Position numbers and translations under genes: made by a program. The notes under the pieces are model-generated. The model had not been told where the DNA came from. It searched no databases and worked only from the letters and a program-made list of their open reading frames with translations. Shown here in pieces: positions 3,139-59,125 of a stretch of DNA of 64,000 nt (positions within the stretch are counted from its first letter, which is position 1; the number at the start of each line of letters is the position of its first letter). The stretch covers positions 62,001-126,000 of the forward strand of contig NW_026576090.1 in the NCBI RefSeq assembly GCF_028641065.1, given 5' to 3'. Origin of the DNA: Leucoraja erinacea. Its lineage: Eukaryota.

Positions 3139-5215
3139 TTCTGGGCATAATCCGGAAGACGCAGGATCATTTCATTAAAAGGAAGAAAGATTCTAAGGGG
3201 AGTAGGAGGCAACCGTGGCTGACGAGAGAAGTTAGGGATACAATAAAACTAAAAGAAAAGATGTATAACACAGCAAAGAGTAGCCGAAAGCCAGAGGATT
3301 GGGAAACTTTCATAGGACAACAGCAGGAAACAAAACGCAATACGGGCTGAAAAGATGAAGTACGAGGGGAAGCTGGCCAGGAATATAAAGAAGGACAGTA
3401 AAAGCTCCTTTAGATATGTTAAGGGAAAAAGAGTAGCAAAGTCAAATGTGGGTCCCTTGAAGGCAGACACGGTGAAATTATTATGGGCAACAAGGAAATG
3501 GCAGAAGAATTGAATAGGTACTTCGGATCTAAGGAAGACACAAACAATCTCCCAGATGTACTGGAGGACAGAGGATCTAAGAGGGTATAGGAACTGAAAG
3601 AAATTTTCATTAGGTGAGAAATAGTATTAGGTAGGCTAATGGGACTGAAGGATGATAAATCCCCTGGGCCTGATCGTCTGCATCCCAGGGTCCTCAGGGA
3701 GGTGGCTCTAGAAATAGTGGACGCATTGGTGATCATTTTCCAATGTTCAATAGATTCAGGATCAGTTCCTGTGGATTGGAGGATAGCTAATGTTATCCCA
3801 CTTTTTAAGAAAGGAGCGAGAGAGAAAACGGGGAATTACAGACCAGTTAGCCTGACTTCGGTTGTGGGAAAGATGCTGGAGTCAATTATTAAAGAGGTAA
3901 TAATGGGGCATTTGGATAGCAGTAAAAGCATTAGTCCAAGTCAACATGGATTTATGAAAGGGAAATCATGCTTGACTAATCGTCTGGAATTTTTTGAGGA
4001 TGTGACAAGTAAAATGGATGAAGGGGTGCCAGTGGATGTAGTGTATCTAGACTTTCAGAAAGCCTTTGATAAGGTCCCGCACGGGAGACTGGTGACTAAA
4101 ATTAGAGCACATGGTATTGGGGGTAGGGTGTTGACATGGATAGAAAATTGGTTGGCAGACCGGAAGCAAAGAATAAGAGTGAACGGGTCCTTTTCGGAAT
4201 GGCAGGCAGTGGCGAGTGGAGTGCCACAAGGCTCGGTGTTGGGGCTGCAACTGCTTACCATATATATTAATGATTTGGAAGAGGGAATTATCTCAATGGG
4301 GTTAGGTTAGGTAAGGTGCAGCGAGACCTGGGCGTCCTTGTACACCAGTCACTGAAAGTTGGCATGCAGGTACAGCAGGCAGTGAAGAAAGCTAATGGAA
4401 TGTTGGCCTTCATAACAAGAGGATTTCAGTATAGGATTAAAGAGGTTCTTCTGCAGTTGTATAGGGCTCTGGTGAGACCACATCTGGAGTATTGTGTACA
4501 GTTATGGCCATTTTCTCCTTGCCTAATTTGAGGAAGGACATCCTTGTGATTGAGGTGCAGCGTAGGTTCACGGGATTGATCCCTGGGATGGCGGGACTGT
4601 CATATGAGGAAAGATTGAAAAGACTAGGCTTGTATTCACTGGAGTTTAGAAGGATGAGGGGGATCTTATAGAAACATATAAAATTATAAAAGGACTCGAC
4701 AAGCTAGATGCAGGGAATAATTTCCCAAAGTTGGTCGAGTCCAGAACCAGGGGCCACAGTGTTAGAATAAAGGGGAGGTAATTTAAGACTGAGGTGAGAA
4801 AAACGTTTTCACCCAGAGAGTTGTGAATTTATGGAATTCCCTGCCACAGAGGGCAGTGGAGGCCAAATCACTAGATAAATTCACAACTCTCTGGGTGAAA
4901 ACGTTTTTTCTCACCTCAGTCTTAAATGACCTCCCCTTTATTCTAAGACTGTGGCCCCTGGTCTGGACTCGCCCAACATTGGGAATTTTTTTCCTGCATC
5001 TAGCTTGTCCAGTCCTTTTATAATTTTATATGTTTCTATAAGATCCCCCCTCATCCACTGGTTAGATAGAGCTCTAGGGGCTAGAGGAGTCAAGGGATAT
5101 GGGGATAAAGCAGGCACGGGTTATTGATAGGGGACAATCAGTCATGATCACAATGAATGGCGGTGCTGGCTCGAAGGGCCGAATGGCCTCCTGCACCTAT
5201 TTTCTATGTTTTTAT
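3139..5215 (+). mobile_element. CR1 LINE, 5'-truncated ORF2 (RT) plus 3' end
   Basis: ORF 3639-4310 has KSPGPD..HPRVL, NYRPVSLTS, QHGFMKGKSCLTN, YLDFQKAFDKVPH and SGVPQGSVLG. 3' tail GGCTCGAAGGGCCGAATGGCCTCCTGCACCTATTTTCTATG. Confidence 0.92.
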
Positions 5216-5776: not shown

Positions 5777-5822
5777 ATGGGGGTCGCTGCTTATCTCTGT
5801 CTCCTTCTGTCCTGTCTGACAG
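5777..5822 (+). CDS. IgW: IgW heavy chain leader exon
   Basis: MGVAAYLCLLLSCLT-G|GTGGGT; hydrophobic signal peptide with a phase-1 donor. Confidence 0.93.
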
Positions 5823-5924: not shown

Positions 5925-6219
5925 GCGTTCGATCTGCGATCGTGCTGAATCAGACCCCGACCGTGGTGGCAAAGCCCGGAGGGTCCCTCACACTGACCTG
6001 TGCAACCAGCGGGTTCAACCTCAGCATCACCCCCATGCACTGGGTGAAACAGGTCTCCGGGAAAGGGCTGGACTGGGTAGGAAGGTCGTATAAAGGTGAC
6101 AAAAAATACGGTCCTGCCTTCAGCGGCCGATTCGAAGTTTCCATGGACAGCAGCAACGTCTATCTCCAAATGAACGACCTGAGACTGAACGACACGGCCA
6201 CCTATTACTGTGCGAGACA
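5925..6219 (+). CDS. IgW: IgW VH segment
   Basis: Acceptor TTTTATTGGCAG, then (G)VRSAIVLNQTP..SLTLTCATSGFNLSITPMHWVKQVSGKGLDWVG..RFEVS..YLQMNDLRLNDTATYYCAR. Both Cys and the conserved Trp are intact; open frame. Confidence 0.97.
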
Positions 6220-6258
6220 CACAGTGAGAGGAAGCGGGGCCGGGCCGGTACAACAACC
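6220..6258 (+). other. V 3' recombination signal (23-RSS)
   Basis: CACAGTG 6220-6226, 23-nt spacer, ACAACAACC 6250-6258. Confidence 0.95.
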
Positions 6259-6455
6259 CAGGGGAGAGAGAGCCTGCCCTCAGCTCGGAGCCAAGCGCCG
6301 TGGGTGGAACTGGAGTCACGGGTCGATGAATCCCGGTGTCCGTCTCTGAGACACGGTCAATAGTCGGGCGAGAAGGAACCTCTGTACCTTGGGCTTCAAG
6401 TTGACAGTCGGACGTGCGGAGTGACTGGGCTCGGAGACAGTATGAGAGGATGGGG

Positions 6456-6534
6456 GGTTATTGTACATCGGTGAATCACAGTGACTATATGGGTGGCACA
6501 GTGTGAGAGATGTGACTTCCTCCATACAAAAACC
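6456..6534 (+). other. D1 segment (6484-6496, ACTATATGGGTGG) with 5' 12-RSS and 3' 22-RSS
   Basis: GGTTATTGT(6456-6464)-12 nt-CACAGTG(6477-6483); D; CACAGTG(6497-6503)-22 nt-ACAAAAACC(6526-6534). All three reading frames are open. Confidence 0.95.
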
Positions 6535-6860
6535 TGCCGCAACCAAACGCTTTAAATCGCGTCTCTGGACGCTGCCGCTGCCTTTCCCCCGGGACGCGTG
6601 GATATAAACCAGACCCCGAGTGCATCATCTAGCACAGGGAACAAGATCCACTGAAGATGTGGGAATGCAAGCAGCGAGGAGCCGCTGTGGGTAGAGGCAC
6701 GGCGACAGTCCCGATCGGGGTATCTCCTGTCCACTACAGGGCTGCAATGGCCGAGACTGGACGCTGCTGTGTGGGACACACGGACACAGATGGATGGGGC
6801 TTTAATTGAGCCGCTGCCCACTCTGGCCAGCGTTGGATTTCGGGCTGGATGTGGTAGCGC

Positions 6861-6888
6861 AGTTTGTGAGCGGCGGTGAATCACCGTG
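6861..6888 (+). other. 12-RSS directly upstream of the J coding sequence
   Basis: AGTTTGTGA(6861-6869)-12 nt GCGGCGGTGAAT-CACCGTG(6882-6888). The spacer shares CGGTGAAT with the D1 5' spacer. No nonamer at the 22/23 positions. Confidence 0.8.
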
Positions 6889-6931
6889 TATGACTACTGG
6901 GGTGCAGGAACCTCGCTGACAGTGACTTCAG
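6889..6931 (+). CDS. IgW: IgW JH (probably germline-joined D2-J)
   Basis: YDYWGAGTSLTVTS-G|GTAAGA; WGxG motif and strong donor. Confidence 0.95.
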
Positions 6932-13746: not shown

Positions 13747-14055
13747 AGGATGAGGCCTTGCCTTCAGTCCATATGACCTCTTCCTGCAACACAGAATCTG
13801 AGCAAGAGATCAGCATCCTCTGTCTGGTCAAAGACTACCAGCCTGAGATCATCAGTCAGACATGGTCCACCAGCAGTGGGGACATCACCACTGGAATCAC
13901 AAAGTACCCACCAGTGTTGGGACAAAACAACAAGTACACAATGAGCAGCTTGCTGCGAGTCCCTGTGGCAGCTTGGAACAGGAAAACCGTCTACTACTGC
14001 AAGGCAGGATACAAGCCGGCCAACATGGTGAAAACGGAGATCCAGAAGCCTCAAG
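13747..14055 (+). CDS. IgW: IgW CH1 exon
   Basis: TTTCAG| EDEALPSVHMTSSCNTE..ILCLVKDYQPE..TW..MSSLLRVP..YYCKAG..QKPQ-G|GTTAG. C1-set domain with an extra N-terminal Cys suited to light-chain linkage. Confidence 0.96.
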
Positions 14056-16169: not shown

Positions 16170-16469
16170 CTCCACAGCTCATCCCCCTTGTTCCATCCGC
16201 GGAGGTTCTCCACAATCAAACAACTGCTGCCCTGGGCTGCATGATATCCGGATTCTTTCCTAACAATGTTAAAGTTTCCTGGAAAAAATCTGGACTTAAT
16301 CAAGCGGGCGTCGTTCTCCCGTCCACTCCGGGAACTAACGGTAGATTTGAAACAGTTGCTTACCTGCGGTTGCGTGTGGAGGAATGGACCAACAAACAGG
16401 AATATACTTGTGAAGTGACTCATGCACCTTCCGGCTTCAGCGACAGGATCAACATGAGATATCAAGAGG
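16170..16469 (+). CDS. IgW: IgW CH2 exon
   Basis: TTACAG| APQLIPLVPS..LGCMISGFFPNNVKVSWKK..EEWTNKQEYTCEVTHAPSG..YQE-G|GTGAGT. Confidence 0.96.
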
Positions 16470-17076
16470 GTGAGTGGTGTCTGTTAATTTACTTACAGTA
16501 TTAAACAAACTTACTGACATTTCCACTAAATTCCTGTCCCTGAGATCAGTCCTGTTGAGCAATGTATTATCTTCAGATTTGGCTTTTTTGCAATTTAAAC
16601 CAATGCTTTCCATCAGTAATTCTAACTCGTTCTACAGGACATGTAGAGAGGAAGGTCACCAGTGTGTTTACTCTCACTCCTCTAGTCTAGTTGCCTGTGT
16701 GTGCAGTGGTAAGAAAAATGGGACAGTGAAAAAACCACGGGTCCCATCCTATCTGGAGAAAATCTCACTTCCCTTCTCACTGTCTTCTTTGTGTTAGTTT
16801 CTCCAAATCCATCTTTTTCCACTGTTTCCTGAGAGTCTGTTCTGTAGATTTTCCTTTCATTGACATGTCGGTGCCCTGGATTATTTTTGAACTCATCTCC
16901 ACCATCTTTAAAGTGTTGTCTGATCCTGGACAAAGTGAAGCAGTTTATCATGGTCGGCATAATCTCATGCTGATGAATACTGAGGACACAGACTGGGAAT
17001 ATGTGGATCTCCAGTTTCCTCAACACAGGTGGTGAAAATCTCTTCACATTTAAACCAATGAATCTTCCATTTCCAG

Positions 17077-17204
17077 GTGGAGAATGTCCCGGCTGTTCGA
17101 AGTGTCTGCCAAAGTTCATCTACCAGAATAATGTCAATGTGACATTCTCAGATGGTTCTACCCAGCAGTATCATTGTTGGGCAGGAAAGTGTGAAATAAA
17201 GTAA
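17077..17204 (+). CDS. IgW: IgW short-form (IgX-type) cysteine-rich secretory tail exon
   Basis: TTCCAG| GGECPGCSKCLPKFIYQNNVNVTFSDGSTQQYHCWAGKCEIK*; phase 1, five Cys. AATAAA at 17195-17200 and 17498-17503. Confidence 0.9.
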
Positions 17205-20473: not shown

Positions 20474-20791
20474 TTGAGCCAAAAAAACCTGAAGTCAGAC
20501 TGCTGCTTCCAGCACACGCAGAGACCAAGCCTAGCCACAAGGTCACCCTCGAGTGTGTGGTCTCTGGATTCTACCCAGACCTCATCAACGTCACTTGGAG
20601 TAAAGACGGTGCCCTGATCTCCAACAACACCAGCGTTGCACCAACTGCTCTGGAGCAGGGGGGCACTTTCAGTGCCAGCCACTTCCTGACCATGAACACA
20701 GAGGATTGGAAGTCAGGCTCACACTTCAATTGTACAGTGCATCATGGCGCCTCCAACACCATCATCACGAAGGATGTGAAGAACATCCAAG
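20474..20791 (+). CDS. IgW: IgW CH4 exon
   Basis: TTCCAG| VEPKKPEVRLLLP..LECVVSGFYPDLINVTW..EDWKSGSHFNCTVHH..KNIQ-G|GTAGG. Confidence 0.95.
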
Positions 20792-20919: not shown

Positions 20920-22340
20920 AGATTAGATTAGATTCAACTTTATTGTCATTGCACAAATACGAGTACAGGTACAACAAAATGCAGTTTAGCATCGAATCAG
21001 AGTGCAAAGTAGTAAAAATACTGGTTAAAACAATTTGTACAATGTGGGTAAATTAATCTAGGACATAGGCAAATAAATATATACAGATAAAAGATAGCTA
21101 GCGTCGGGCCCGTGAGTTCAGCAGGGTAATGGTATTTTGGAAGAAACTGTTCCTCAGCCTGCTGGTGCGAGACCCGAGGCTCCTGTACCGCCTCCCTGAT
21201 GGGAGGAGGGCAAACAGTCCATGGTTGGGGTGTGAGGGGTCCTTAATGATTTTCCCAGCCCGTCTCAGACACCGTGTGCGGACGAGGGCAGCCATGGCAG
21301 GGAGCGGGGCACCGATGATGCCACCCGTTGCAGTGCCTTCCTGTCAGCTGTGGTGCAGCTGCTGTACCATACCGTGAAGCAGGTGGTCAGGATGCTTTCG
21401 ATGGTTCAGCGGTAGAAGTTGGACAGGATCTGGGGGGACAGGTGAACTTTCTTAAGCCTCCTCAGATAGTAGAGGCGCTGCTGCGCCTTTTTAATCAGTT
21501 TAGTGGTGTTGAGGGACCAGGACAGATCCTCTGAGATGTGTACCCCGAGGAATTTGTAGTTGGAGACGCGCTCCACCTCAGTCCCGTTTATGTGGATGGG
21601 GGTATGTCTGCCCCCTCTGGTCTTCCGGAAGTCTACGATGATTTTCTTCGTCTTCTTTGAGTTGAGGGCGAGGTTGTTATTGGTACACCAAGCTGCCAGG
21701 TGCTGGACCTCCTCCCTGTAGGCTGATTTGTTATTGTCCTTGATCAGTTGTCGGCAAATTTAATGATGGCGTTGGAGCCATACATAGGGACACAGTCATG
21801 GGTGAAGAGGGAGTAGAGGAGAGGGCTGAGCACACAGCCCTGAGGCACGCCGGTGTTCAGTGTCAGAGTGGAGGAGGTGAGGTTGTTGATCCTAACAGAC
21901 TGGGGTCTGTTGGTGAGGAAATCAAGTGTCCAGTTGCAGAGGGAGGTGGTGATGCCAAGTCCGCTGAGTTTGGTGATCAAGCTGGCAGGGATGACCGTGT
22001 TAAATGCAGAGCTGAAGTCAATGAACAACAACCTGATGTTGGAGTTGTTGTAGTCCAGGTGGGTCAGGGCAGAGTGAAGAGCCGCAGATATAGCATCTCC
22101 TGTTGACCGATTATGCCGAAAGGCAAACTGATGGGGGTCCAGTATGGGAGGGAGGCTGGATTTGAGGTGAGCCAGTATCAGTCTCTCAAAGCACTTCGCG
22201 ATGACGGGGGTGAGTGCCACTGGGCGAAAGTCATGTAGACTCCCTGAAGCTGACTGTTTGGGCACTGGCACAATGGTTGAGGTTTTGGGGCAAGTAGGGA
22301 CGACACCCTGGGCCAGTGACAGATTGAAAATGTCAGCGAA
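20920..22340 (-). mobile_element. Rex1/Babar LINE (RT domain to 3' end)
   Basis: ORF 21744-22271 [54 protein letters not shown]; 3' part HPNHGLFALLPSGRRYRS. Confidence 0.88.
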
Positions 22341-23296
22341 GACCAGGGATAGTTGTCCATCTTTGACATTGTTTTAGTAACTTGAGGGCAATCCAAGCCA
22401 GTCGACAGGCCAGACACGGTGGAGATCCACAATACTCTTCTTCAAAATGGTATTTTCCTCTGCCTTTGTACTTAATGGCAGTGGGTGCCTCAGCTGTCAC
22501 AGTGTCCAGCAGAGCAGCTCTCTCCCCGCCCCAGCGTGGCAACAGTCAGTCTGGGCAATGTGTAGCAGCCTCTGGAACAGGCCGGCTGCAACACACAACA
22601 TTCTGACAAAGCAGCAGGACAGTTTAGTTACACCTCATGGATACAAACTGCATTCAAACAGTTGTGACTAAATGAAAGGACACAAAGTGCTGGAGGAACT
22701 CAGCAAGTCAGGCAGCATCCCTGGAGGACATGGGGAGGTGAGGTTTGGGGACGAGACCCTTCTTCACCCCACTCCGGACCACTCACGACTAAATAAAATA
22801 TTGCCGCTGCTCCTATTTTATAATATAAAGTGAAGAACTTTCCGCTGACTGGTTAGCACGCAACAAAAGCTTTTCACTGTACCTCAGTACACGTGACAAT
22901 AAACTAAACTAAACTGAACATTTTGACCTCGAACATTAGCTCGATTTGCCTCTCCAGAGGGACTTTTATACATTTGATTCAGTAAATAGCTGATAACAGG
23001 TTCAGTGATTACAGAACTGTCAAATAATGTAAAAGTCAACTTGTTAATTCGCATTAAGGTAGTTTTCTGGGTAAGGATGTGAATTGTTAATTCACATTGT
23101 TTAGGATGTTAATTCACATTGTTTAGCAGGGTTTCCTTGTGTGATCAATAGGAAGCTTCATTCCTACACCAATGTAGATAAATCTCACTGATGTTGATGG
23201 GACCGGCATATCATTCGGTGGAGATGAGCACAAAATGTTTGAGTGACAAGCTGCTCCATCAGGGAACGATGACATAATAATTGTGATTTCTCCCAG

Positions 23297-23617
23297 ATGA
23301 ATGTTCAGATACCCGCCCCTCGGTCACTTTAAGCAAACCTTCCTTCGAAGAGATCTGGATCAACAAGACAGCCACCATTCAGTGTAAGGTGGTTCACGGT
23401 GATTTAGAGGGATTCAGGGTAACCTGGCAAGTGAATGGAATGAAGAGAGAAGACGGGGTGACAACTCGTGGTGTAGAGAGGACCGGAGGTACAGACACCA
23501 TCACCAGCGGACTGACGGTCCCCGCTGCAGAGTGGGAGAGTGGGGCTCTGTACACCTGTGTGGTGGAGGACAAGAGTTTGCCAACACCGGAGAGGAGATC
23601 CTTGGAGAAGCCGACAG
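23297..23617 (+). CDS. IgW: IgW CH5 exon
   Basis: TCCCAG| DECSDTRPSVTLSKPSFEEIWINKTATIQC..VTWQVNG..EWESGALYTCVVEDKSLP..EKPT-G|GTACG. Confidence 0.95.
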
Positions 23618-24719: not shown

Positions 24720-25105
24720 ATGGAGTTGAGAGACATCCTCAAGTCTACCTCCTCCCCCCTTCATTGGATGAGGTGGAGACGGATAAGACAGCCACCTTGA
24801 CGTGCCTGGTCACCAGATTCTCTCCTGCAGACATCTATGTGGCCTGGATGGCCAACGACACCCTTCTGAAGACAGGGATTGTGAACCAGCCCGTGACCGA
24901 GGACACCAGGAATGGGTGGAACACCATGACCAGTCAGTTGAAGGTTTCTCCAGAGGAGTGGAACAGTGGCACCACCTTCTCCTGTGTTGTGGGACACAGC
25001 TCCATCACAACCAGTCTATTCAGAAGCATCAATAAATCTCACAGCAAACCCACCCTGGTCAATGTCTCACTTGTTCTGACTGATAGCTTTAAATCTTGTG
25101 TGTAA
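24720..25105 (+). CDS. IgW: IgW CH6 plus long-form secretory tailpiece
   Basis: TCCCAG| DGVERHPQVYLLPPS..TLTCLVTRFSPADIYVAW..EEWNSGTTFSCVVGH..SINKSH-SKPTLVNVSLVLTDSFKSCV*. Mu-type tail with NVS sequon and penultimate Cys. AATAAA at 25373-25378. Confidence 0.96.
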
Positions 25106-27576: not shown

Positions 27577-27879
27577 TATTTCTCATCTTTCTCCAAAACC
27601 CCTCCACTGAAGAGATTTGGATCAACAAGACCGCTACTGTGGTGTGCGTGGTAATGGGTGCTGACCTGAGCCAGGTCCAAATCTACTGGCAAGTGAGCGG
27701 AAGGGAGAGGACAACAGGGGCTGTGACCCGCCAACCGAGAGGGGAAAGGACCCAAGACAGAGTGAGCAGTAAACTCCGGAGCAGTGTGGAGGAGTAGACC
27801 AGTGGGGTGGAGGTTGTGTGCTCTGCCCAGCGATCTCCATCATCCTCACCAGTGTCAGCACGGCCAGAAAGTACCAAAG
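27577..27879 (+). pseudogene. Duplicated CH3-like pseudo-exon (CH3')
   Basis: Collinear with CH3 (same 303-nt span, EEIWINKTATVVC..YWQVSG..). Conserved Trp changed TGG->TAG at 27795-27797; no AG acceptor at the homologous position; donor G|GTGGGC retained. Confidence 0.88.
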
Positions 27880-28291: not shown

Positions 28292-28609
28292 TTGAAACAA
28301 AAAGACCCAAGGTCAGACTGCTGCCTCCAGCTCATCAAGAGACCAAGTGTAGCCACACAGCCATCCTCGAGTGTGTGCTCTCTGGTTTCTACCCGAACCT
28401 CATAAACGTCACTTGGGAGAGAGACGGAGCCCCGATCTCCTCCACCACCAGCGCTACACCGACTGCTCTGGAGCAAGGGGGGACTTTCAGTGCCAGCCAC
28501 TTCCTGACTGTGAGTTCAGAGGATTGGAAGAAAGGCTCAGTCTTCGGCTGTACAGTGTCTCATCCCCCCTCGAACACCAGTATCAGCCGGGAAGTGAAAA
28601 GCTTTCAAG
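28292..28609 (+). CDS. IgW: Duplicated CH4-like exon (CH4'), intact
   Basis: TTCCAG| VETKRPKVRLLPP..LECVLSGFYPNLINVTW..EDWKKGSVFGCTVSH..KSFQ-G|GTACGG. Same 318-nt length as CH4, ~69% amino-acid identity by manual alignment. Confidence 0.88.
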
Positions 28610-33184: not shown

Positions 33185-33324
33185 CTGGCACAGACTTGAC
33201 AGGAGAAGAAGGGAAGGAGGAACTGGGGGACTTGGATGAAGATGAAAATGTGTTCGCAGTTGCTGTCTTCGCCACTCTGTTCATTATCAGTTTCCTCTAC
33301 AGTACCTTCGTCACCGTTGTCAAG
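33185..33324 (+). CDS. IgW: IgW TM1 exon
   Basis: CCTGAAG| AGTDLTGEEGKEELGDLDEDENVFAVAVFATLFIISFLYSTFVTVVK|GTAACG. Acidic spacer followed by the antigen-receptor TM motif (LF..S..YST..T..K). Confidence 0.95.
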
Positions 33325-37499: not shown

Positions 37500-40400
37500 T
37501 GGCAAATTTTGCAAGGGAGATTTGCGAAGGCTACGGGGGAGACTTTAAACTAGAACGGTTGGGGGGGAGGGACTCAAATAGAGAAAGCTAGTAGACAGTG
37601 TGTGAGGTAGGAGGCAGAGAAGGGAAGCACTCAGACCCAACATGTACGGGAGAAAGAAGACAAAGATAATAAACAGAATAAGAGAGGGTGGGTTTCTTAA
37701 ATGTGTATATTTTAATGCTAGGAGCATTGTAAGAAAAGTGGATGAGCTTAGAGCCTGGATTGACACCTGGAAGTATGATGTTGTGGCGATCAGTGAAACA
37801 TGGTTGCAGGAGGGCTGTGATTGGAAACTAAATATTCCAGGATTTCGTTGCTTCAGGTGTGATAGAATTGGAGGGGCAAGAGGTGGAGGTGTTGCATTGC
37901 TAGTCAGGGAAAATATTACAGCAGTGCTTTGGCAGGATAGGTTAGAGGGCTCATCTAGGGAGGCTATTTGGGTGGGACTGAGAAATGGGAAAGGTGTAGC
38001 AACACTTATAGGGGTGTATTATAGACCGCCAAATGAGGAGCGAGAATTGGAAGAGCAAATATGTAAGGAGATAGCAGATATTAGTAGTAAGCACAAGGTA
38101 GTGATTGTGGGAGATTTCAATTTTCCACACATAGACTGGGAAACACATTCTGTAAAAGGGCTGGATGGTTTGGAGTTTGTAAAATGTGTGCAGGATAGTT
38201 TTTTGCAGCAATACATAGAGGTACCTACTAGAGAAGGGGCAGTGCTGGACCTCCTGTTAGGAAATGAGACAGGTCAGGTGGCGGAGGTATGTGTTGGGGA
38301 GCACTCCGGGTCCAGTGATCACAATACCATTAGTTTCAATATAATTATGGAGAGGGTCAGAACTGGACCAAGGGTTGAGATTTTTGATTGGAAAAAGGCT
38401 AACTTTGAGGAGATGCGAAAGGATTTAAAAGGAGTGAATTGGGACATTTTGTTTTATGGGAAGTAGAGAAATGGAGGACATTTAAAGGTGAAATTTTAAG
38501 AGTACAGAATCTTTATGTCCCTGTTCGGTTGAAAGGAAATAGTAGTAATTGGAAAGAGCCCTGGTTTTCAAGGGAAATTGGACACTTGGTTCGGAAAAAG
38601 AGAGAGATCTACAATAATGATAGGCAGCATGGAGTAAATGAGGTGCTTGAGGAGTATAAAGAATGTAAAAAGAATCTTAAGAAAGAAATTAGAAAAGCTA
38701 AAAGAAGATATGAGGTTGCTTTGGCAAGTAAGGTAAAAGTAAATCCAAAAGGTTGAACAATTTCTTTTCTTCGGTATTCACCAAAAAGAAGGATATTGAA
38801 TTATGTGAGGTAAGGGAAACAAGTAGAGTAGCTATGGAAACTATGAGGATCAAAGTAGAGGAAGTACTGACACTTGAAAAATATAAAAGTGGATAAGTCT
38901 CCATGTCCTGACAGGATATTCCCTAGGACATTGAGGGAAGTTAGTGTAGAAATAGCAGGGGCTATGACAGAAATATTTCAAATGTCATTAGAAACGGGAA
39001 TGGTGCCGGAGGATTGGCGTACTGTGCATGTTTTTCCATTGTTTAAAAAGGGGTCTAAGAGTAAACCTAGCAATTATAGACCTGTTAGTTTAGGGTGGGC
39101 AAATTAATGGAAAGGATACTTAGAGATAATATATATAATCATCTGGATAAACAGGGTCTGATTAGGAACAGTCAACATGGATTTGTGCCTGGAAGGTCAT
39201 GTTTGACTAATCTTCTTGAATTTTTTGAAGAGGTTACTAGGGAAATTGATGAAGGTAAAGCAGTGGATGTTGTCTATATGAACTTCAGTAAGGCCTTTGA
39301 CAAGGTTCCTCATGGAAGGTTGGTTAAGAAGATGCAATTGTTGATTATTAATGGTGGAGTAGCAAGATGGATTCAACAGTGGCTCAATGGGAGATGCCAG
39401 AGAGTAATGGTGGATAACTGTTTATCAGGTTGGAGGCCGGTGACTAGTGGGATGCCTCAGGGATCTGTGTTGAGTCCACTGTTGTTTGTCATGTACATCA
39501 ATGATCTGGATGATGGTGTGGTAAATTGGATTAGTAAGTATGCAGATGATACTAAGATATGTGGTGTTGTGGATAATGAAGTAGATTTTCAAAGTATACA
39601 GAGAGATTTAGGCCATTTGGAAGAGTGGGCTGAAAGATGGCAAATGGAGTTTAATGCTGATAAGTGTGAGGTGCTACATCTTGGCAGGACAAATCAAAAT
39701 AGGACGTACATGGTAAATGGTAGCGAATTGAGGAATGCAGTTGAACAGAGGGATCTAGGAATAACTGTGTATAGTTCCCTGAAGGTGGAATCTCATGTAG
39801 ATAGGGTGGTAAAGAACGCTTTTGGTATGCTGGCCTTTATAAATCAGAGCATTGAGTATAGAAGTTTGGATAGAAACATGAAACATAGAAAATAGGTGTA
39901 GGAGGAGGCCATTCGGCCCTTCGAGCCTGCACCGCCATTCAATATGATCATGGCTGATCATCCAACTCAGTATCCTGTACCTGCCTTATCTCCATACCCC
40001 CTGATCCCTTTAGCCACATCTAACTCCCTCTTAAATATAGCCAATGAACTGGCCTCAACTACCTTCTGTGGCAGAGAATTCCACAGATTCACCACTCTCT
40101 GTGTGAAAAATGTTTTTTTCATCTCGGTCCTAAAAGATTTCCCCCTTATCCTTAAACTGTGACCCCCTTGTTCTGGACTTCCCCAACATCGGGAACAATC
40201 TTCCTGCATCTAGCCTGTCCAACCTCTTAAGAATTGTGTAAGTTTCTATAAGGTCCCCCCTCAATCTTCTAAATTCTAGCGAGTACAAGCCAAGTCTATC
40301 CAGTCTTTCTTCATATGAAAGTCCTGACATCCCAGGAATCAGTCTGGTGAACCTTCTCTGTACTCCCTCTATGGCAAGAATGTCCTTCCTCAGATTAGGA

Positions 40401-46703: not shown

Positions 46704-47203
46704 CCGCAGTGGAACCGGTTACAACTGCCCCTCCCCACACTGACCCCACCTCCCCAAACTCACTGCAACACCTGCTAACCCCTGACCTTCCACATTCAGT
46801 CTGACCCCTGACCTCAACCCTCGTCCAAGGCAAGTCGGGGAAGCCCAGCCCTTTAACCCTGACCCCGACCCCTTCACCTCTGACCCTGGCCCAGGTCAGG
46901 ATACCAAAGCGGTCGTGATCTCGGGAAAGCCATTCACTCTGACCACCTGCCGTCTGACCCCCCCTCTCATAACCCCTGACCCTGAGGTCAGCGCAGGACA
47001 GGCCTGAGCTCGGGAAAGTTCTGGTGTGACCTTTTGACCATTGACTCCCACCCTCTGACCCCGACCCCACACTGTGACCGCCTGACCCCATGCCAGAGGT
47101 CACTCCAGCAGGTGGTGGAGGCTGGGTCTGACCCCGGGCTGGGGGTCAGTGGGGTAGGTGGATGGCCAGCCAGAGGTTGACCCCTGACCCGTGACCCTGG
47201 GGG

Positions 47204-47669
47204 TCAGTGGAGGAGGTTGTCGATGGCCGCCTGTGGCCGGGGAAATCGGTACCGGTAGCCACTGTCTAGTGTACGGCGAGGTTCCACCCACTGGCCCTGC
47301 AGCAGCAGCAATGCCCGCTCTGGCCACAGTGCAGCCTGCACCAATGCAGCCGGCACCCGCAGCCGGGCTCCACGCCCCAGGCTCCCCGCCAGTGCCTCCG
47401 CAAACTCCCCCTGGGTGCAGCGAGATGGGGCAACGCCGTTCAGCACCCCTTCCACTCCTCCCAATTTCCCCCCCTTCCCCTTGCACTCTCCCCCCTCCTC
47501 TCACTCCCCCTCCCTCCGCACCCCCTCCAGTGCATGCAGCAAGATCCCAGCCAGGTCTTCCACGTGGATCCAGGGGAAGGGCTGGAGTCCGGAGCCCCCC
47601 CACAAAATCCCATCCAAAACGGCAGCAGCATCGGAGGCAGCACTCCCCCATCTCTCCCCAGGACCACTC
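47204..47669 (-). CDS. SDR39U1: SDR39U1 exon 6 (last; apparent frameshift near 47600 and in-frame TGA at 47501-47503)
   Basis: GVVLGRDGG..MLLPF..GSGLQPFPWIHVEDLAGILLHALE..GVLNGVAP..EFAEALAGSLGR..LLQGQWVEPRRTLDSGYRYRFP..*. Confidence 0.88.
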
Positions 47670-48704
47670 CTGCAGCGGGCGGTGGGGGGAGGGGATAGAG
47701 AGGGGAGACGGGGGGGGAGAGGGGGGCGGGTGAGAGAGAGTGGGGTAAAAGAAAGAGTGGTGAGAGATGAAGCAGACACCCCAGGAACAGACGTAGTGGA
47801 GGGATGGACCCACCATGTGGGATGGATTCAGAGGACGGACGGATGCTGGGGGACAGAGACAGGGGACGGACAGAACGCAGGAAGAGGGAGACAGGCGACT
47901 GTAGTGTGTGTAATGGTGACTGTACCTTGAAGAATTGATGGTGTGGTATTAGTTTAGTTTAGAGATACAGCATGGAAACAGGCCCTTCGGCCCAACTTGC
48001 CCATACAGGCCAACAATGTCCCAGCTACACTAGCTCCCCTGCCTGCATTTGGCCCATATCCCTCCAAACCCGTCCTATCCATGTACCTGTCTAACTGTTT
48101 CTTAAACGATGGGACAGTCCCAGCCTCAACTACCTCCTCCGGCAGCTCGTTCCATACACCCACCTTCCTTTGTGTGAAAAAGTCACCCCTCAGATTCCTA
48201 TTAAATCTTTTCCACTTCTATGTCCTCTGGTCTGCGATTCCCCTACTCTGGGCAAGAGACTAAGAAACATGGAACATAGGAGGAGGCCATTCGAGCCAGC
48301 ACCGCCATTCAAGATAATATTGGTGATCATCCAGGCCCTGCTTTCTCCCCATATCCCTCGATTCCGTTAGGCCTAAGGGCTAAATCTAACCGGACGGGGC
48401 GTGGAAGGACGAGAAGCCGAAGCGAAGAAGTGGAAGCCAAGATACCGAGCGGAAATGATGGCGTTAAACTGAACGGAACCACACCGATAAACCAAATAAG
48501 GGACATGATGTCTCTGGGGACAGGATTTGTCCGAGACCTTGTCAGCGATTGGTCCAGACCCCCACGTCCATCAAACTACTGGCCGGGGGAGACGGGAGGG
48601 TGGGGGGGATTTTTAATTTTCCTAATTTTCGCTTTTGGACTGCTAAAGAGCGGATTATTTTTGTAAGCATGGATCTACCACGGTGCTTGGGGTTAAGAGG
48701 CTGG

Positions 48705-48742
<38 letters not shown>

Positions 48743-49575
48743 CACCCCCCCCCCCCCCCCCCCCCCTCTCTCTATCTATCTATCTCCCCCCCCCCCTCAC
48801 TTGCTCTATCGGCTCGCTCTCTCTCGGCATTCCCGGAATGCTTTGGCGTTTTACAAAGACAACTGCATCTGCAGTTCCTCCCTATTGAAGAAGAACCCTG
48901 GCCCGAAACAACTCCTAATCCATTCCTTCCACAGATGCCGCCTAGCCTGCTAAGTTCCTCCAGCACTCTGTGTTTTTTATTTAACTCTGAAATTGAAGAT
49001 AGACACAAAAAGCTAGACTAACTCAGCGGGACAGGCAGCATCTCTGGATAGAAGGAAAGGGTGACGTTTCGGGTCGAGACCCTGCTTCAGACAATCACAC
49101 AAATACTATCACCGACGAGAGTTCAGTTCAGTCTGGAGAAGGGTCTCGACCCGAAATGTCACCCATTGCTTCTCTCCAGAGTCACTGCCTGTCTGCCGTG
49201 CTTCCGCGCTGTACAATGCAGTGTCCAATATCCCAGCCTTAATGAAACCAATGTTTTAATGAAGTTCAACACAATCTCCTTGCCTTTGTACCCTGCACCT
49301 TCAGTTACAAACCCGTGCACATGGTTGGCATTGTTGGGACCGCATATTTTTTACAATTTCCCCTATCACCCAGAGTGTATTTCCCATTGGAAAGCAGAAT
49401 ATAGTTGATGCGGTCGGTTAGATCAGATGAAAGCTGGTTCCGAAGGTCGGGACGAACCGACCGTGGGGGACAGAGACAGGGGACGGACCAACTGTGGGGG
49501 ACAGAGACAGGGGATGGACTGACCGTGGGGGAGGGAGACAGGGACGGACAGACCCGGGGGGAAGGGGGGGTTTAC

Positions 49576-49728
49576 CTGCACGGACCACCACCTGCCTCAC
49601 GAGCCGACCTATTCCCTCGGGCAGTCGGGCCGCTGACTCCCAGTCACCCACCAACCGCGAGAAGAAGTCAAAGTCACCGCCAACACTCCCCTCGTGGTAC
49701 TCCTCCCGCAGGCTGGGCCGGTAGTAGC
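49576..49728 (-). CDS. SDR39U1: SDR39U1 exon 5
   Basis: YYRPSLREEYHEGSVGGDFDFFSRLVGDWESAARLP..RQVVVRAG; canonical AG/GT boundaries. Confidence 0.93.
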
Positions 49729-49730
49729 CT

Positions 49731-51010
49731 GGGGATGGGGGAGAGAGGGGGGGGGGAGTGAAATAAGGGGGGAGGAGAGAAAGGAAGAGGTAGAGAAAGG
49801 GGGGGTAGGAGGAGGGGGAGGGGGGAGAGAGGGGGAGGGGAGAGATGGGGAGGGGGATGGGAGAGGAGGGAGGGGGAGAGGGGGGGGAGGGGAGAGAACA
49901 GGGGGGAGGAGGGAGAGAGATGTGGAGGGGAGAGAGAGGGGGAAGGAGAGATGGGGTGGAGGGGAGAGCAGGGGAGGAGAGAGATGGGAGGGAGAGGGCA
50001 GGGGAGGAGGAGAGGGGGGAGGGGATAGATGGGGAGCGGAGAGCAGGAGAGGGGGGAGGGGAGAGCAGGGGAGGAGAGGAGAGAGGGGGGAGGGGGATAG
50101 ATGGGGAGGGGAGAGAAGGAGAGGAGGAGAGAGGGGGGGAGAGGAGAGCAGGGGAGGAGAGAGATGAGGGGGGGGAGAGGGGGAGGGGAGGGAGGGGAGA
50201 GATGGGGAGGGGAGAACGGGGAGAGAGAGGGAGGGGAGAGAGAGGGGAGGAGAGGGAGGGGGAGAGGGGGGAGAGGGAGGGGAGGGGAGAGAGACAGGGG
50301 AGGAGAGGGGGGAGGGAGAGGGGGAGGGGGGGAGGGAGAGCAGGGGAGGAGGAGGAAGGTGGAGGGGAGAGAGGGGAGGGAGGAGAGGGAAGAGGGGAGA
50401 GAGGGGGAGGAGGAGGGGAGGGAGGAGAGAGGAGAGAGGGGAGGGAGGGAGAGGACAGGGAGAGGAGAGGGGGGGGAGGGGAGGCAGGGGAGGAGAGAGA
50501 GGGGAGGGAAGAGGGGGAGGAGAGGGGGAGGGGAGAGATGGGGAGGGGAGAACAGGGGGAGAGAGAGATGGGGGAGAGGGGGGGATAGGGGAGAGGAGGA
50601 GGAGGAGGAGGAGGGGGGAGGGGAGAGAGGGGGGGGGAGAGAGAACGGGAGGAGAGAGAGGAGGGGAGGGGAGAGAGGGGAGGGGAGAGAGAGCAGGAGA
50701 GGAGAGGGGGGAGGGGAGAGATGGGGAGGGGGGAGAGCAGGGGAGGAGGGAGGGGGGAGGGGAGAGATGGGGAGGGGAGAGCAGGGGAGGAGAGAGGGGG
50801 AGGGGAGAGAGAGGAGGGGAGGAGAGGCAGGGGAGGAGAGGAGGAGAGGGGAGAGATTGAGGGAGCGAGGGGGGGAGGGGAGAGATGGGGAGGGGAGAGA
50901 TGGGGAGGGGGAGAGAGGGGAGGAGAGAGAGGGGAGGAGAGAGGGGGGAGGGAGAGATGGGGAGGGGAGAGAGGGGGAGGAGAGAGGGAGGAGGGGAGAG
51001 AGGGAAAAGA
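49731..51010. repeat. ~1.3 kb polypurine (G/A) low-complexity tract
   Basis: Almost exclusively G and A on the + strand. Confidence 0.95.
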
Positions 51011-51199
51011 ACACAGTGAATCACCCACTATTTCTAGCAGCACCCAGTCATGTGGGGAGTGGTGGGGATGAGGGTGGGGGGGATGGGGTGGAGTTAACGC
51101 CCATGCCAGTGAGCCCCACCCAGGCGCAGGGGTGGGTGAGGGGAATGTGGGGGGGGGGGGGGGAGGGGAGTAGGGTGGTGGTGGGGGTCAGTATCTCAC

Positions 51200-51321
51200 C
51201 CACGCCGGTTAGCAGCACCCAGCTGCGGGGGGGGTGGGGGCAGAGAGCGATGGCCTTGCTCAGGGTCCTCGTCGTCTCCACTCGGCTCGACACCACCTCC
51301 TGCTGGAAGGAGCGGCTCCAC
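51200..51321 (-). CDS. SDR39U1: SDR39U1 exon 4
   Basis: WSRSFQQEVVSSRVETTRTLSKAIALCPHPPRSWVLLTGV-G. Confidence 0.93.
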
Positions 51322-51605
51322 CTGTGGGGAGAGGAGGCACTGAATCCCCCTCCCACCACCAGCGTCTGCCTCCCCCTCCTCACCCTCCCTTCCCTCTCCC
51401 CGCACCACCCTCTCCTCTCTCACTGTCTCCAACCCGTCCCTTCCTCCGTCCCCTCCCACCCTGATATCCTCCCCATCCCTTCCCCCTCCTCTCTCCCTCC
51501 TCTCCCCCCTCTCTCCCATCTCTCTCCCCCCTTTCCCAACTAACTCTATCTCCCCCATCCCTCTCCCCCCTCCCCTCTCTCTCCCCCTTCCCCTCTCTCA
51601 CTGAC

Positions 51606-51688
51606 CTCCGCAGTGGGTTGAGGACATTGGCTCCAGCCACATTCACCACGGCATCACAGGGGGGCAGGCCACGGGAGGCCACGTGTGT
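51606..51688 (-). CDS. SDR39U1: SDR39U1 exon 3
   Basis: THVASRGLPPCDAVVNVAGANVLNPLR-R. Confidence 0.93.
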
Positions 51689-51984
51689 CTGTAATACAGG
51701 GAATACAGGTCAGGAACACGGGTCAGATTGAACACTGGTCGGGGACACGGGTCAAGAACACGGACGGAGACACGGGTCGAGGACGGGTCAGGAACACGAG
51801 GTCGGGGGGGTCGGGGACACGGGTCAGGAACACGGACGGAGGGGGTCAGGGGTCGGGAACAGGGGTAGGGGACACGATTCAGGAACACGGGTCGCAGTCA
51901 GAGGGACGGGGGGGGAGAGGGGTAGGGGACAGATTGAACACGGGTCAGGGTCAGAGGGACAGGGGTGAGAGGGCATGGACTCAC

Positions 51985-52088
51985 CCAGGTGACCCCGGCC
52001 CCCGGTCTCCGGGAGACGAACTCCACCTCGTGACCTTTGCTCCTCAGGAGGCGGCTAAGGGCGGAGCCAACGAAGCCGGAGCCTCCGC
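51985..52088 (-). CDS. SDR39U1: SDR39U1 exon 2
   Basis: GGSGFVGSALSRLLRSKGHEVEFVSRRPGAGVTW; Rossmann GxxGxxG motif. Confidence 0.93.
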
Positions 52089-53498
52089 CTGCCCCAGAGA
52101 AACACAGCAGTCAGTGGCCCGACCCCGTGACCCCTGACCCCTCACCCCCATGACCCCTCACCCAGGACCCCTCAACCCGGGAAGCAGCCCTACCGTGACC
52201 ACTCACCCCCATGACTTGACACAACGACCTATGACCTCTGACCTGGGAAGCAGCCCGACCCTGTGATCTCTCACCCGACGAGCAGCCCAACCCCGCAACC
52301 TGTTGCCCCCAACCCCATGACGGATCGACCTGTGACCCCCGACCCGGGTAGCAAAAAGACACGTTGACATGTGAACCCTCAACCAAGCGAACAGCCTGAC
52401 ACGTTCACCCCTGACCCAAAGGAGAAAAAGGACATTTATTATCACATACACCAGTTGGTGTAGTGAAATTTGATTTGCCAAAGCAGCACACGAATAATGA
52501 TAAGACACAACATTAAAGAATTTAACAACATAAAAACATCCCCCCACAATGGTTCCCACTGTGGGGGAAGGCAGCAAAGTCCAGTCCCATCCCCTGATGG
52601 CATCCCTGCGCTGCGCCGCCGCCGAAGCTGTAGTCCCGGCCGGTCCAGACAGGAAAGGCCGCTCCAGTCTCGATGGTAGGCCGCGAGGAGGGAGGCCAAG
52701 AAGCAGCTCAGAGGGAAGCAGCCTCTACGATCAGGTAGTGACTAGGAAATAAAGTTTCCCCTTTCCCCTTCCCCCTCCCCCCACATAAAAGACTAGAAAA
52801 CCACCCAAAATAAACACTTTAACTCACTAAAAATAAAAAAAATGGGTGAAAGGACTAACAGCTGCAGGCGGGGCAGCCATACTCGACGGCGCCCCTGGGG
52901 AGGAACCTGACACTTCCTTCTGCAGTTGTACAGGGCCCTAGTGAGACCACACCTGGAGTATTGTGTGCAGTTTTGGTCCCCTAATTTGAGGAAGGACATT
53001 CTTGCTATTGAGGGAGCTCAGCATAGGTTCACCAGGTTAATTCCCGGGATGGCGGGACTGTCATATGCTGAGTGAATGGAGCGGCTGGGCTTGTACACTC
53101 TGGAGTTTAGAAGGATGAGAGGGTATCTCATTGAAACATATACGATTGTTAAGGGATTGGACACGCTAGAGGCAGGAAACATGTTCCCGATGTTGGGGGA
53201 GTCCAGAACCAGGGGCCACAGTTTAAGAATAAGGGGTCGGCCATTTGGAACGGAGACGAGGAAACACTTTTTCTCACGGAGAGTTGTGAGTCTGTGAAAT
53301 TCTCTGCCTCAGAGGGCGATGGAGGCCGGTTCTCTGGATGCTTTCAAGAGAGAGCTAGATAGGGCTCTTAAAAATAGCGGAGTCAGGGGATATGGGGAGA
53401 AGGCAGGAACGGGGTACTGATTGGGGATGATCAGCCATGATCACATTGAATGGCGGTGCTGGCTCGAGGGGCCGAGTGGTCTCTACTCCTGCACCTAC

Positions 53499-53514
53499 CG
53501 ATCAGAACCTTCAT
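53499..53514 (-). CDS. SDR39U1: SDR39U1 exon 1 coding part
   Basis: ATG AAG GTT CTG ATC G|GTAGGT = MKVLI-G; compare the human start MRVLVG. Confidence 0.85.
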
Positions 53515-54065
53515 CCCGCCGCTGTCTCCGTGACAACCCCGCGCCCTCTGGTCCCCCCTGGCCGGTGCTCTTGTCCCGGAGGAACCTCCTCGTTGGCGCT
53601 GGAGGACCCGCGGGGCTGGAGGACCGGCGCGGGGGGCGGGGCTAGAGGAACCGCGAGGGCGGGGCTTGAGTACCAGCGCGGGGGGCGGGGCTGACCTGCC
53701 GGGGGGGCGGAGTTGGAGGACCCGTGGGGCTGGAGGACCAGGGCGGGGGGCGGGGCTGGAGGAACGGGGACGGGGCTTGAGGGACCTGCGCGGGGGGCGG
53801 GGGAGTGGAGGACCCGTGGGGGGGCGGAGCTGGAGGACCAGCGCGGGGCGGGGGGGGGACGGGGCCTGGAGGGACCAGGGGCAACGGGGAGGGCGGAGCT
53901 GGAGGACCCGCGCGGGGCTGGAGGAAGCAAGGGGGCGGGGCTTGATGAGACGCGGAAGGGGGGCGGGGCTGGAGGACCAGGGATCGCGGGGGGGCGGGGC
54001 TGGAGGACCAGGCGCGGGGGGGCTGATGGGCGGGGGGCGGGGCTGAGGACCGCGCGGGGCGGAAG
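53515..54065. promoter_or_regulatory. Bidirectional CpG-island promoter for SDR39U1 and TTC5
   Basis: More than ten GGGGCGG(G/A)G GC boxes in a tandem GGGGCGGGGCTGGAGGACC unit, between divergent ATGs 551 bp apart. Confidence 0.75.
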
Positions 54066-54140
54066 ATGGCGGAGAGGGGGAGAGCCGCGGAGAGGAGAGG
54101 AGGAGGAGAAGGAGAGCGGAGCGCGGAGGAGAGGCGGGGA
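54066..54140 (+). CDS. TTC5: TTC5 exon 1 (probable)
   Basis: GAAGATGGCG start context; MAERGRAAERR..EERRG|GTGAGG; phase 0 matches exon 2. Low sequence conservation. Confidence 0.6.
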
Positions 54141-57100
54141 GTGAGGGGAGAGGAGAGAGAGATTAAAGTAATGAAAGAAAGAAAGAGAGAGAGAGGGAGG
54201 GAGAGAGAGAGGGAAGGAGATGATACGAGAGGGGAGAAGGACATGCTGGAGAGGGAGAGGAGGGGGAGGTTGGAGAGATGAGGGGGATGTACGTAAGTAA
54301 GTTTTATTTGTATAGCACGTTTAAATCAACTCGCGTTGAAACCAAAGTGCTTTACATAGAATAAATAATTAAGTTTCCGTTCATCCATAGAAAAAAGGAT
54401 GGAGAGAAGGAGATGATGGGGAGGGGGAGGGCAGGTTGGGGGGAGTGGGCAGGAAGGGGAGAGGGTAGGGGACTGGAGAGAGGAGGAGGAGGGGGATGGA
54501 GATGAAGGAGGAGAGGGCGGGGAAGGGGGAGGGGGAGGAAAGTTTCATTGTCATCTGTCCCGAAACAGAACAATGGAAACTCTCACTTGCGGCAGCAACG
54601 ACAGATGGAGAAACACACGGGGAGGAAACAGGCCCTTCGGCCCAACTTGCCCACACCGGCCAACATGTCCCCATCTACACTAGCCCCACCTGCCCGCACT
54701 TGGCCCATAATCCCTCCAAACCTGTCCCATCCATGTACCATTTTAAATGTTGTTACAGCACTTGCTTGTCCTCCGGCAGCTTGTTCCATACACCCACCAC
54801 CATCTGTGTGGAAATGTTACACCTCAGGTTCCTATTAAATCTCCTCCCCCCCCCATCTTAAACCTATGTCCTCTGATACCTCAAGAGATTCCGTGCTTTA
54901 CCAGATCAATATCAATACCCAATGAATGGCAGAGTAGACATGTTGGCTGAATTGCGGTGCAGGCTCGAAGGGCCGAATGGCCTACTCCTGCACCTAATTT
55001 CTATGTTTCTATGAATGGCCTAATTCTGCTCCTATCACCTATGACCAATCCCTCTCATGATTACTATACACATCTATAAGATCAACCCTCATCCTCCTGC
55101 CCTCCAAGACATGGAGACCCAGCCTACTGAACCTCTCCCTATAGATCAGGCCCTTGAGTCCTGGCAACATTTTTCTTTATACCCTCAGCATCTTCTCTGT
55201 ACCCTTTCCAGCTTGACAACATCTTACCTATAATATGGTAACTCAAACCAAACACAATACTCTAAATGCGGCCTCACCAACGTCTTATACAACTGCAGCA
55301 TGGCCCCCCAACTTCTATACTCAATACTCTGACTGATGAAGGCCAATGTGCTAAAAGCCTTGTTGACCACCTTATCTACCTGCGACTCAACCTTCAAGGA
55401 ACCATGCGCCTGTACTCCTAGATCCCTCTGCTCCACAACACTACCCGGAGGCCGACCATTCGCTGTGTAGGTCCTGCCCTTGTCCCAAAATGCAATACAT
55501 TTCTCTGTATTAAATTCCATCAAGCATTCACCTGCCCACATGGCCAATCGATCAAGATCCTGCTGCAATCGTTCACAACCACCTCCATTATCACCCAATT
55601 TTTTTTTTTATCATTTGCAAACTTGCGAATCTTACAGTGTATGTTCTCATCCAAATCCCCAGAGGCACACCACTAGTCACAGGTCTCCAGTCCAAGACGC
55701 AACCTTCCACCGTCACCCTCCGCTTCTTCCCATGAAGCCAATAAGCGAGTTCGGTATTCCGACTGCGCATGCCCAGGTCATAGGTCACTTGCGATAATCA
55801 TTCTTGGCAGCTGTGCAGGTCTGCGTTTCGTCCGGGGTCAGGGTCCGGATCTCCGGCGCTGTTGAGTTGCTGCTGGGCCACCCCTGTCCCCTCCCGGGTG
55901 TCCTGTCCCTGTCCGGGGAGGCTGGAGGCCCTGGGCTTGCAGCCAGCGCAGGAGGGAGGCGCTGGCACCGGCTCGGCTTTGGCTCCCGTTCCCCGGCGGG
56001 CTGGGGGGAGTCGGCTGCGACTCTCTCCTTCAGTTGTCGGTTGGCTGCCTTGGTGTGCCCAGGGGAGGGCCATTGGTGCTTGCACACACGGGCATTGGAG
56101 GGAGGCGGTCAGGCATCCGAGAAGGGTCTTGACCGAAACGTCACTCCCGTTCCCGGCGGGCCAGGGGATGCGTCTGTCCCGACTCTTGCTGCAGCGTTCT
56201 GTGGCTTGTCGGTTGGCCCCTGGTTGCTTGCAGGCTGGGTGGGGGCAGGGGCCATTGGTTGGGTTGGCGCACGCTGGCTGTGCACCTGCGGCCGGCGAAA
56301 CTCTGGGTCAGGCATCCCTTGGGGGGGGGGGGGGGGACCCGGGGGGTGGTAAAACCTCGCTTATTCCCATTTCTCCGGGGATGCTGCCTGGGATTATCCC
56401 TAATGAGTTGCTGCAGCGCAATCTCCTGTCCCCTTTGGCCCTCCGTTTGTTAAGGCTCCTGGTATGATCGCATCTGAATGGAATGGGGCGAATTTCCTTT
56501 ATTGTCATTGGCAGACCTTACGGTTCTGAACGAAAATTGTGGGCCTGCAGTCATACATACAATGATCTGGGTAATAACAACAATAAACACAAATTAACTT
56601 CCACCACAGTGAGTCCTCCAAACACCTCCTCACTGTGGTGGAGGCAAAAATCTTAGGGTTGCAGTCTCTCCCTCTGCGCTGAGGCGATTCCCCACCGGGC
56701 GATGGTATAAACAGTCCCGCAGCTCACCGAACCCCGAGAACGGGCCGGTTCAAACACTGCGGCCCGGGGTGGTCGAAGCCGCCGCACCTCCAGTCCAGCA
56801 CACGCAGCCGCCAGCCCGCGGCTGAACCCAGGACTCTGGACACCGCCGCCAGAACGTCGTCCCAGCCTCTTCATATACATCAATGGGATTGGACAGTGAA
56901 ACAGGTTCCCGATGTTGGGGGAATCCAGAACCAGGGGTCACTGTTTAAGAATAAGGGGTCAGCCATTTAGGACTGAGATGAGGAAAAACATTTTCACCCA
57001 GAGAATTGTGAATCAGTGGAATTCTCTGCCACAGAAGGCAGTGGAGGACAATTCACTAGATGTTTTTAAGAGAGATTTAGCTCTTAGGGCTAACTGAATC

Positions 57101-57621
57101 AATGGATACGGGGAGAAAACTGGAACGGGGTACTGAACGTGGATGATTAGCCGTGATCATATCGAATGGCGGTGCTGGCTTGAAGGGCCAAATGGCCTCC
57201 TCCTGCACCTGTTTACTATGTCCTCCCCCCCACCCCTCACCAACTTCTACAGATGTGCCGTAGAAAGCATTTAATCGGGATACATCATTGCCTGTGTTCG
57301 GAACAGCTCCATCCAAGACCACACGAAGTTGCAGTGAATTGGCCTCCACTGCCTTCTGTAGCAGAGAATTCCACAGATTCACAACTCTCTGGCTGAAGAT
57401 GCTTCTCCTCATCTCCATCCTAAATGGCCGACCCCTTATTCTTAAACTGTGACCCCCCTGGTTCTGGACTTCCCAAACATCGTGGGAAGGGACAGTTTGG
57501 GGGGGGAGGGGACAGTGGGGGTGGGAGAGTGGATCGTGGGAGGGTGGGGACATGGTGTGGGGGTGACAACAGTGTTGTGCGGGGAGCAGTCAAGTTGTGA
57601 TCCCCTCCCCCCCCCCCACAG

Positions 57622-57760
57622 GAGCAGGTGGAGCAGCTCTACACGTTCCGTGACACCTTCTTCCAGACGGAGGGGCCGGGGCCGGGAGGGGCCGAGGAGA
57701 GGCAGCGGCAGCTGCAGGAGAGGCTGCACCAGGTGCTGGAGGCCATCAGCAGCCTGGAGG
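57622..57760 (+). CDS. TTC5: TTC5 exon 2
   Basis: EQVEQLYTFRDTFFQT..LEAISSLE-G; compare human LVDQLYSFRDCYFET. Confidence 0.9.
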
Positions 57761-58913: not shown

Positions 58914-59125
58914 GGCGGAGCGGGCACAAAGCCAGCGTGCTGCTGTTGAGGGGCAAGGCGTTGAACGTGCTGCCGGAGGGGAGCAGTGAGGCGGAGTCCG
59001 CCCTGTCCCGGGCGGTCAAGCTGCGGCCGGAGCTGCTGGAGGCCTGGAACCAGCTGGGCGAGGTCTACTGGAAACGTGGCGAGCTGGAGGCTGCACGCAC
59101 CTGCTTCACCGGGGCCCTGACCCAC
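58914..59125 (+). CDS. TTC5: TTC5 exon 3
   Basis: [49 protein letters not shown] (TPR repeats). Confidence 0.95.

Follow-up and report, generated by a model that had tools for sequence, protein, structure and literature searches.

The window (the whole stretch of DNA analysed, 64 kb, G000:C909:62001-126000) carries a skate IgW heavy-chain cluster in the order V-23 / 12-D1-22 / 12-J, followed by constant-region exons. The features, in window coordinates, are:

5777..5822, + strand, IgW leader exon with ATG, GT donor and open frame
5925..6219, + strand, VH exon, open, 67-80% identical to other skate IgW V
6220..6258, + strand, V 23-RSS, heptamer 6220-6226 and nonamer 6250-6258 (1 mismatch), identical in the C10 paralog
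6456..6483, - strand, D1 5' 12-RSS, from the signal scan
6484..6496, + strand, D1, 13 nt
6497..6534, + strand, D1 3' 22-RSS, perfect (consensus heptamer and nonamer)
6861..6888, - strand, D2 5' 12-RSS, now immediately 5' of J, identical to the D2 5' RSS in both paralogs
6889..6891, + strand, D2 remnant, 2 nt plus one base common to J, from alignment with the paralogs
6891..6931, + strand, JH, 5'-trimmed, GT donor at 6932, from alignment with the paralogs
13747..14055, + strand, CH1
16170..16469, + strand, CH2
17076..17204, + strand, cysteine-rich secretory tail of short IgW, 90% identical to the tail of P0016
19628..19930, + strand, CH3, best PDB matches to IgNAR constant domains
20474..20791, + strand, CH4
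23297..23617, + strand, CH5
24720..25105, + strand, CH6 with secretory tail
27585..27878, + strand, CH3-like extra exon, broken (acceptor lost, in-frame stop)
28292..28609, + strand, CH4-like extra exon, open
33185..33324, + strand, transmembrane exon, ends approximate

The V exon, the six CH exons, both secretory tails and the transmembrane exon all have open frames. CH1 shows 58-59% identity to named dogfish IgW and 84-86% to two skate two-CH cDNA proteins, which we take to be IgX, and the best PDB matches of CH3 are to IgNAR (E 3e-22, against 2e-11 for IgM). By its sequence the cluster is classed as skate IgW, the constant domains being nearest to IgW/IgNAR and not to IgM. IgW (IgX) has been described with a two-CH short form carrying a cysteine-rich tail and a six-CH long form (PMC5192425), and both are encoded in the window, as expected of this isotype. 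P0005, from a 2,252-nt contig, is a spliced CH1-CH6 with 95-98% identity to the window exons, and clusters of this type are therefore transcribed in some skate. A near-length protein search with the window CH1 gave no match, and a longer-length search with the window V gave nine (the best at 80%), none of which joins the window V to the window J. The CH3-like extra exon has lost its acceptor through a short deletion and is intact in the C10 paralog. The idea that this broken exon abolishes a four-domain membrane form was unsupported, with identities of 62% versus 65%.

Scanning all 64 kb with up to 3 mismatches to the consensus gave five matches, three of which are the V 23-RSS and the two signals of D1. 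The original prediction had described the layout V-23 / 12-D1-22 / 12-J with the heptamer CACCGTG abutting J, a nonamer at 12 bp and a spacer match with the D1 5' spacer, and every one of these features was found in the sequence where it had been placed. The heptamer (6882-6888, 1 mismatch) directly precedes J, which reads YDYWGAGTSLTVTS; the nonamer 12 bp away (6861-6869) is weak with 3 mismatches, and CGGTGAAT is common to the spacers of the J-side 12-RSS and the D1 5' RSS. There is no nonamer with 4 or fewer mismatches 22-24 bp from the J heptamer, and between 6535 and 6860 no other RSS with a second D was detected. Weak as it is (1+3 mismatches), the J-side signal is yet the same as in the unjoined paralogs, and it is not a chance match: heptamer, spacer and nonamer are letter for letter those of the D2 5' RSS in both (2/2) paralogous IgW clusters.

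These two paralogs, C10 and C944, were found by DNA search. In each, the identical 12-RSS leads into a 10-nt D2 with a 12-RSS on its 3' side, and J carries a 23-RSS and starts 403 nt after the start of D2; it is this 403-nt D2-J interval that is missing from the window. At the window junction, two bases of D2 and one base common to D2 and J are followed by J from its DYW codons. D2 has been trimmed by 7-8 nt, leaving 2-3 nt, and J by 7-8 nt compared with the J of C10, or by 3-4 nt if the window J once resembled that of C944. The window has thus suffered a deletion with both ends inside the D2 and J coding segments, with no non-templated bases, one shared base and no P nucleotides. Seen from the 12/23 RSS pair, both ends fall on the coding side, and both signals are gone together with the interval. 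The alignment to paralogs, which had been proposed along with the original prediction, hence located the deleted interval and supports the proposal that the 12-RSS belongs to D2, and that D2 was joined to J with heavy trimming to 2-3 nt. A 12-RSS J shared by all paralogs would instead have pointed to an ancestral arrangement; in 2/2, however, D2 is free and the J carries a 23-RSS.

Over about 50 kb the window locus shares about 90% identity with C10 and with C944, against 97-98% between C10 and C944, and it is therefore a locus of its own and not a mutated copy of either. The same figure of about 90% rules out that the window is an allelic haplotype of C10. Insertion of an RSS into a joined ancestor was also rejected, as coding bases of D2 and J lie outside the RSS and there is no duplication flanking the interval. 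A gene model from another skate, P0008, whose V type is the nearest to that of the window (79%), continues across an intact J 23-RSS; judging from the paralogs and P0008, the unjoined state looks ancestral and the joined form derived.

We consider it probable that the fusion of D2 to J and the loss of the 403-nt interval go back to a RAG cut in a germ cell, followed by joining of the trimmed ends and inheritance. The targets of RAG would have been the D2 3' 12-RSS and the J 23-RSS, and the coding ends would have been trimmed and ligated without TdT before the product was inherited, with nurse shark light chains as the parallel. Germline joins without added bases have been described in those light chains (PMC2193156), and somatic joins are reported to carry N stretches (PMC2435157). 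The deletion itself can be read from the alignment, and RAG as its agent and the germ line as its place of origin are the most likely explanation.

The consensus could alternatively have taken up a somatic D2-J join of a lymphocyte, or contain an assembly error, and we give this a slim chance. In the nurse shark, spleen and thymus contain V-D-DJ as a documented intermediate of somatic rearrangement (PMC2435157), the contig that holds the window is short and unplaced (218,795 nt), and one sequencing run, X3, has window-type flanks and no joined contig. Against this, a consensus should follow the majority of reads, and window-type sequence is present at normal single-copy depth in run X1; there are no N bases, an assembly slip would not hit two coding ends, and five other clusters bear different joins of known germline kinds.

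Four of the 24 sequencing runs listed were compared (X1, X3, X7 and X8). In X1, contigs identical to the window have a depth of 13-28 and paralog-type contigs of 17-52; the contig ends match simulated unitigs of the window sequence, and X1 may be the assembly's own source. No junction-spanning contig was seen among the 32 of 663 pieces listed, and the bin arithmetic, which is very noisy, slightly favours a branch (86 seen, against 80-87 expected with a branch and 78 without). X3 has the same species label and comes from a different animal and study. Here window-type sequence runs to 6860, beyond which the only contig is that of an unjoined D2, and J is uncovered; the depth of this contig (27.9) is nearer to that of one type running on (32) than to that of both (55). 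The pattern could come from an unjoined allele or equally from a clipped branch, and from its adaptor letters the run is presumably a transposase library. In X8, with another species label, orthologous window-type and paralog-type contigs merge into one that continues into the unjoined D2, and a second contig would not fit the bin depths. It seems as if the join is absent in the X8 species, unless graph cleaning removed it. The X7 run has an unjoined contig and is compatible also with a joined one. The window locus is the only copy of its type found in the assembly, therefore the assembly consensus carries the join. A germline origin is likely, given this consensus argument, the absence of N bases and the many joins of known types in the other clusters.

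Besides coding-end joining by RAG in the germ line, we weighed a germline RAG hybrid joint, in which the D2 5' signal end was ligated to the J coding end after trimming, two bases were added and nothing of D2 was kept. The two RSS are 12/23 compatible, the resulting layout would be identical, and there is a germline precedent in the horn shark (PMC2193153). However, the two bases past the heptamer are the first two of D2, which would happen by chance once in 16 cases, added bases are rare in the germline joins described (PMC2193156), and the parallel IgM join on C3 retains 6 nt of D2; hence we regard this reading as improbable. Further, a RAG-independent deletion closed by end-joining repair would account for the long trimming (7-8 nt of D2), the 1-nt overlap and the lack of P nucleotides, and ordinary deletion has removed the CH2 exon of the C10 paralog. 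Such an event is very improbable, as neither end is more than 8 nt away from its heptamer in a 12/23 pair, for which a random deletion has a probability of about 4e-4 (a rough value based on the 1,148-nt V-J span), and as the pattern recurs in IgM-type clusters, with two P-like bases by eye in C1531. An ancestral, TCR-like 12-RSS J in this IgW lineage would fit the formal likeness to the signal order of TCR beta/delta. It is refuted by the alignment, in which the RSS together with 390 nt upstream matches the D1-D2 spacer of the paralogs, by the unjoined relatives and by the lack of a target-site duplication flanking the interval, and we give it practically no chance.

In B cells, the cluster would still rearrange in two steps (V-D1 and D1-DJ) or in one (V-DJ). 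Without trimming, joining of the three parts keeps the frame of CH1 and yields a CDR3 of 10 residues, compared with 15 from the four parts of C10; the untrimmed V-DJ join is out of frame. There would hence be one junction fewer and, going by the translated segments, at most 10 templated CDR3 residues against 15 in the unjoined paralog. Two skate cDNAs have a CDR3 of 13 residues. The original prediction also put forward V-to-DJ joining that skips D1, and 12/23 compatibility with TCR segments. Both were overstated, as every unjoined cluster offers V-to-D2 joining and TCR compatibility by way of the same RSS. In any unjoined cluster a V-23 (or TCR 23-RSS) can already pair with the D2 12-RSS, hence the join spares one step without creating new compatibility. 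Neither did the expected fixed YDY end survive: the first codon of DJ is the coding end that will be cut by RAG and trimmed, which leaves DYW alone as near-constant. DY belongs to the ordinary J sequence, with the J of one paralog and a skate cDNA also ending in DYW.

In the TCR beta and delta loci the signals follow the order V-23, 12-D-23, 12-J. The window has the same formal spacer order but reached it by the loss of the D2-J interval; compared with a locus of this type it has no TCR-derived segments and no new signal, its RSS being an ordinary D2 5' RSS. The shark trans-rearrangements described in PMC12227049 lead from IgM/IgW V to TCR delta D and not onto IgH J, and in the nurse shark between-locus rearrangement is reported for 1 of 97 partial products (PMC2435157).

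Two V searches revealed at least nine IgM/IgW-type VH loci in the assembly, leaving out four weaker V matches on C875/C977, and among the 51 V-search matches there was no further one on C909. Joins were found in six of the nine clusters, with C590, C50 and C10 unjoined. The cluster on C3 (L025, G000:C3:194,774) is V-D1-D2J like the window and keeps 6 nt of D2 without added bases, having lost 6 nt from D2 and 11 from J; it has four CH exons, unlike IgW, and IgM is the label given to it here. C1531 (L026) is VD1-D2J, C532 (L022) is VDD-J and C31 (L024) is a fully joined in-frame VDJ with a divergent V, about 51% identical to both IgW and IgM-type V. It should be noted that C31, C50, C532 and C1531 were classed by V similarity alone.

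The unjoined IgW cluster on C10 (G000:C10:60,993,195-60,999,555) has a frameshift in V close to CDR2, has lost about 2 kb including CH2, and is either a pseudogene or an assembly error. In the skate cDNA P0016 the V end and J resemble those of C10 and CH2 is intact, and the assembly may have collapsed IgW copies. In C944 (L014, around 135353) the end of V runs directly into the final bases of the D1 3' heptamer region, with D1 and the heptamer CAC missing. As no usable signal is left between V and D2, this V cannot be joined under the 12/23 rule, and its V-D1 looks like an over-trimmed germline join. Among the three IgW clusters the window alone looks, from its open frames, intact and able to make a chain. 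The gene model P0006 from another skate, available as protein, has a V that runs directly into D1-like residues and the translation of a heptamer, which suggests a germline V-D1 join in the IgW of that species. The J of C944 is 4 nt shorter than that of C10 beside an intact 23-RSS heptamer, as would be seen after an open-and-shut RAG joint. Further, in G000:C944:99,000-123,300 the CH3-CH4 pair has undergone one duplication upstream of CH5, and four copies of the extra pair lie downstream.

Germline-joined antibody genes have been known in sharks and skates since 1988 and are the main evidence for RAG activity in the germ cells of these animals. Germline V D1-D2J clusters are described in horn shark and little skate (PMC2193153), VD-J and VD-DJ clusters in PMC5192425, and VD-J clusters in PMC4279169. 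Partially germline-joined clusters are thus of an already known kind, which the window extends to IgW in the V-D-DJ state; no germline V-D-DJ IgW was found in the literature searched, with subscription journals mostly outside reach. Like the IgM clusters of horn shark and little skate (VD-J, VD-DJ and VDD-J; PMC2193153, PMC5192425), the window has a genomic D2-J coding joint, intact remaining RSS and unjoined paralogs, but it differs from those described in its isotype and in that V and D1 are still free, with two steps left. The NS4 light chains of the nurse shark (Lee et al. 2000, PMC2193156) share with it the trimmed ends, the little sign of TdT, the change from split to joined and the lack of a target-site duplication. 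They are complete VJ joins with some P bases, found in that report in erythrocyte DNA from several animals and without polymorphism, whereas the window join is partial. The somatic V-D-DJ of nurse shark IgM (Malecek et al. 2008, PMC2435157) has the same configuration, yet is described as lymphocyte-only and clonally unique with N/P bases, of which the window has none.

According to Lee et al., heavy-chain joins are hard to dissect because the junctions are too varied (PMC2193156); close unjoined paralogs let the window joint be read to the base. The join is apparently absent in the run of a related species and hence may be young. If young or polymorphic it would date ongoing germline recombination, and otherwise it is one more example of a known phenomenon. 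Further, we speculate, giving it a fairly small chance, that the join is a very young germline RAG event, still segregating within the species, on the animal's only intact IgW cluster, the locus being unjoined in other animals. The whole IgW repertoire of this animal would then be built from a pre-joined locus with short CDR3s, and the join would be a polymorphic germline V(D)J join, of a kind that the nurse shark survey did not encounter, and would help to estimate how often RAG acts in germ cells.

Outside the cluster segments, open frames at 3618-4307, 21747-22373 and 37606-39892 of the window resemble, by eye, fragments of LINE endonuclease/reverse transcriptase, and low-complexity purine/pyrimidine tracts extend from about 47,000 to 61,000.
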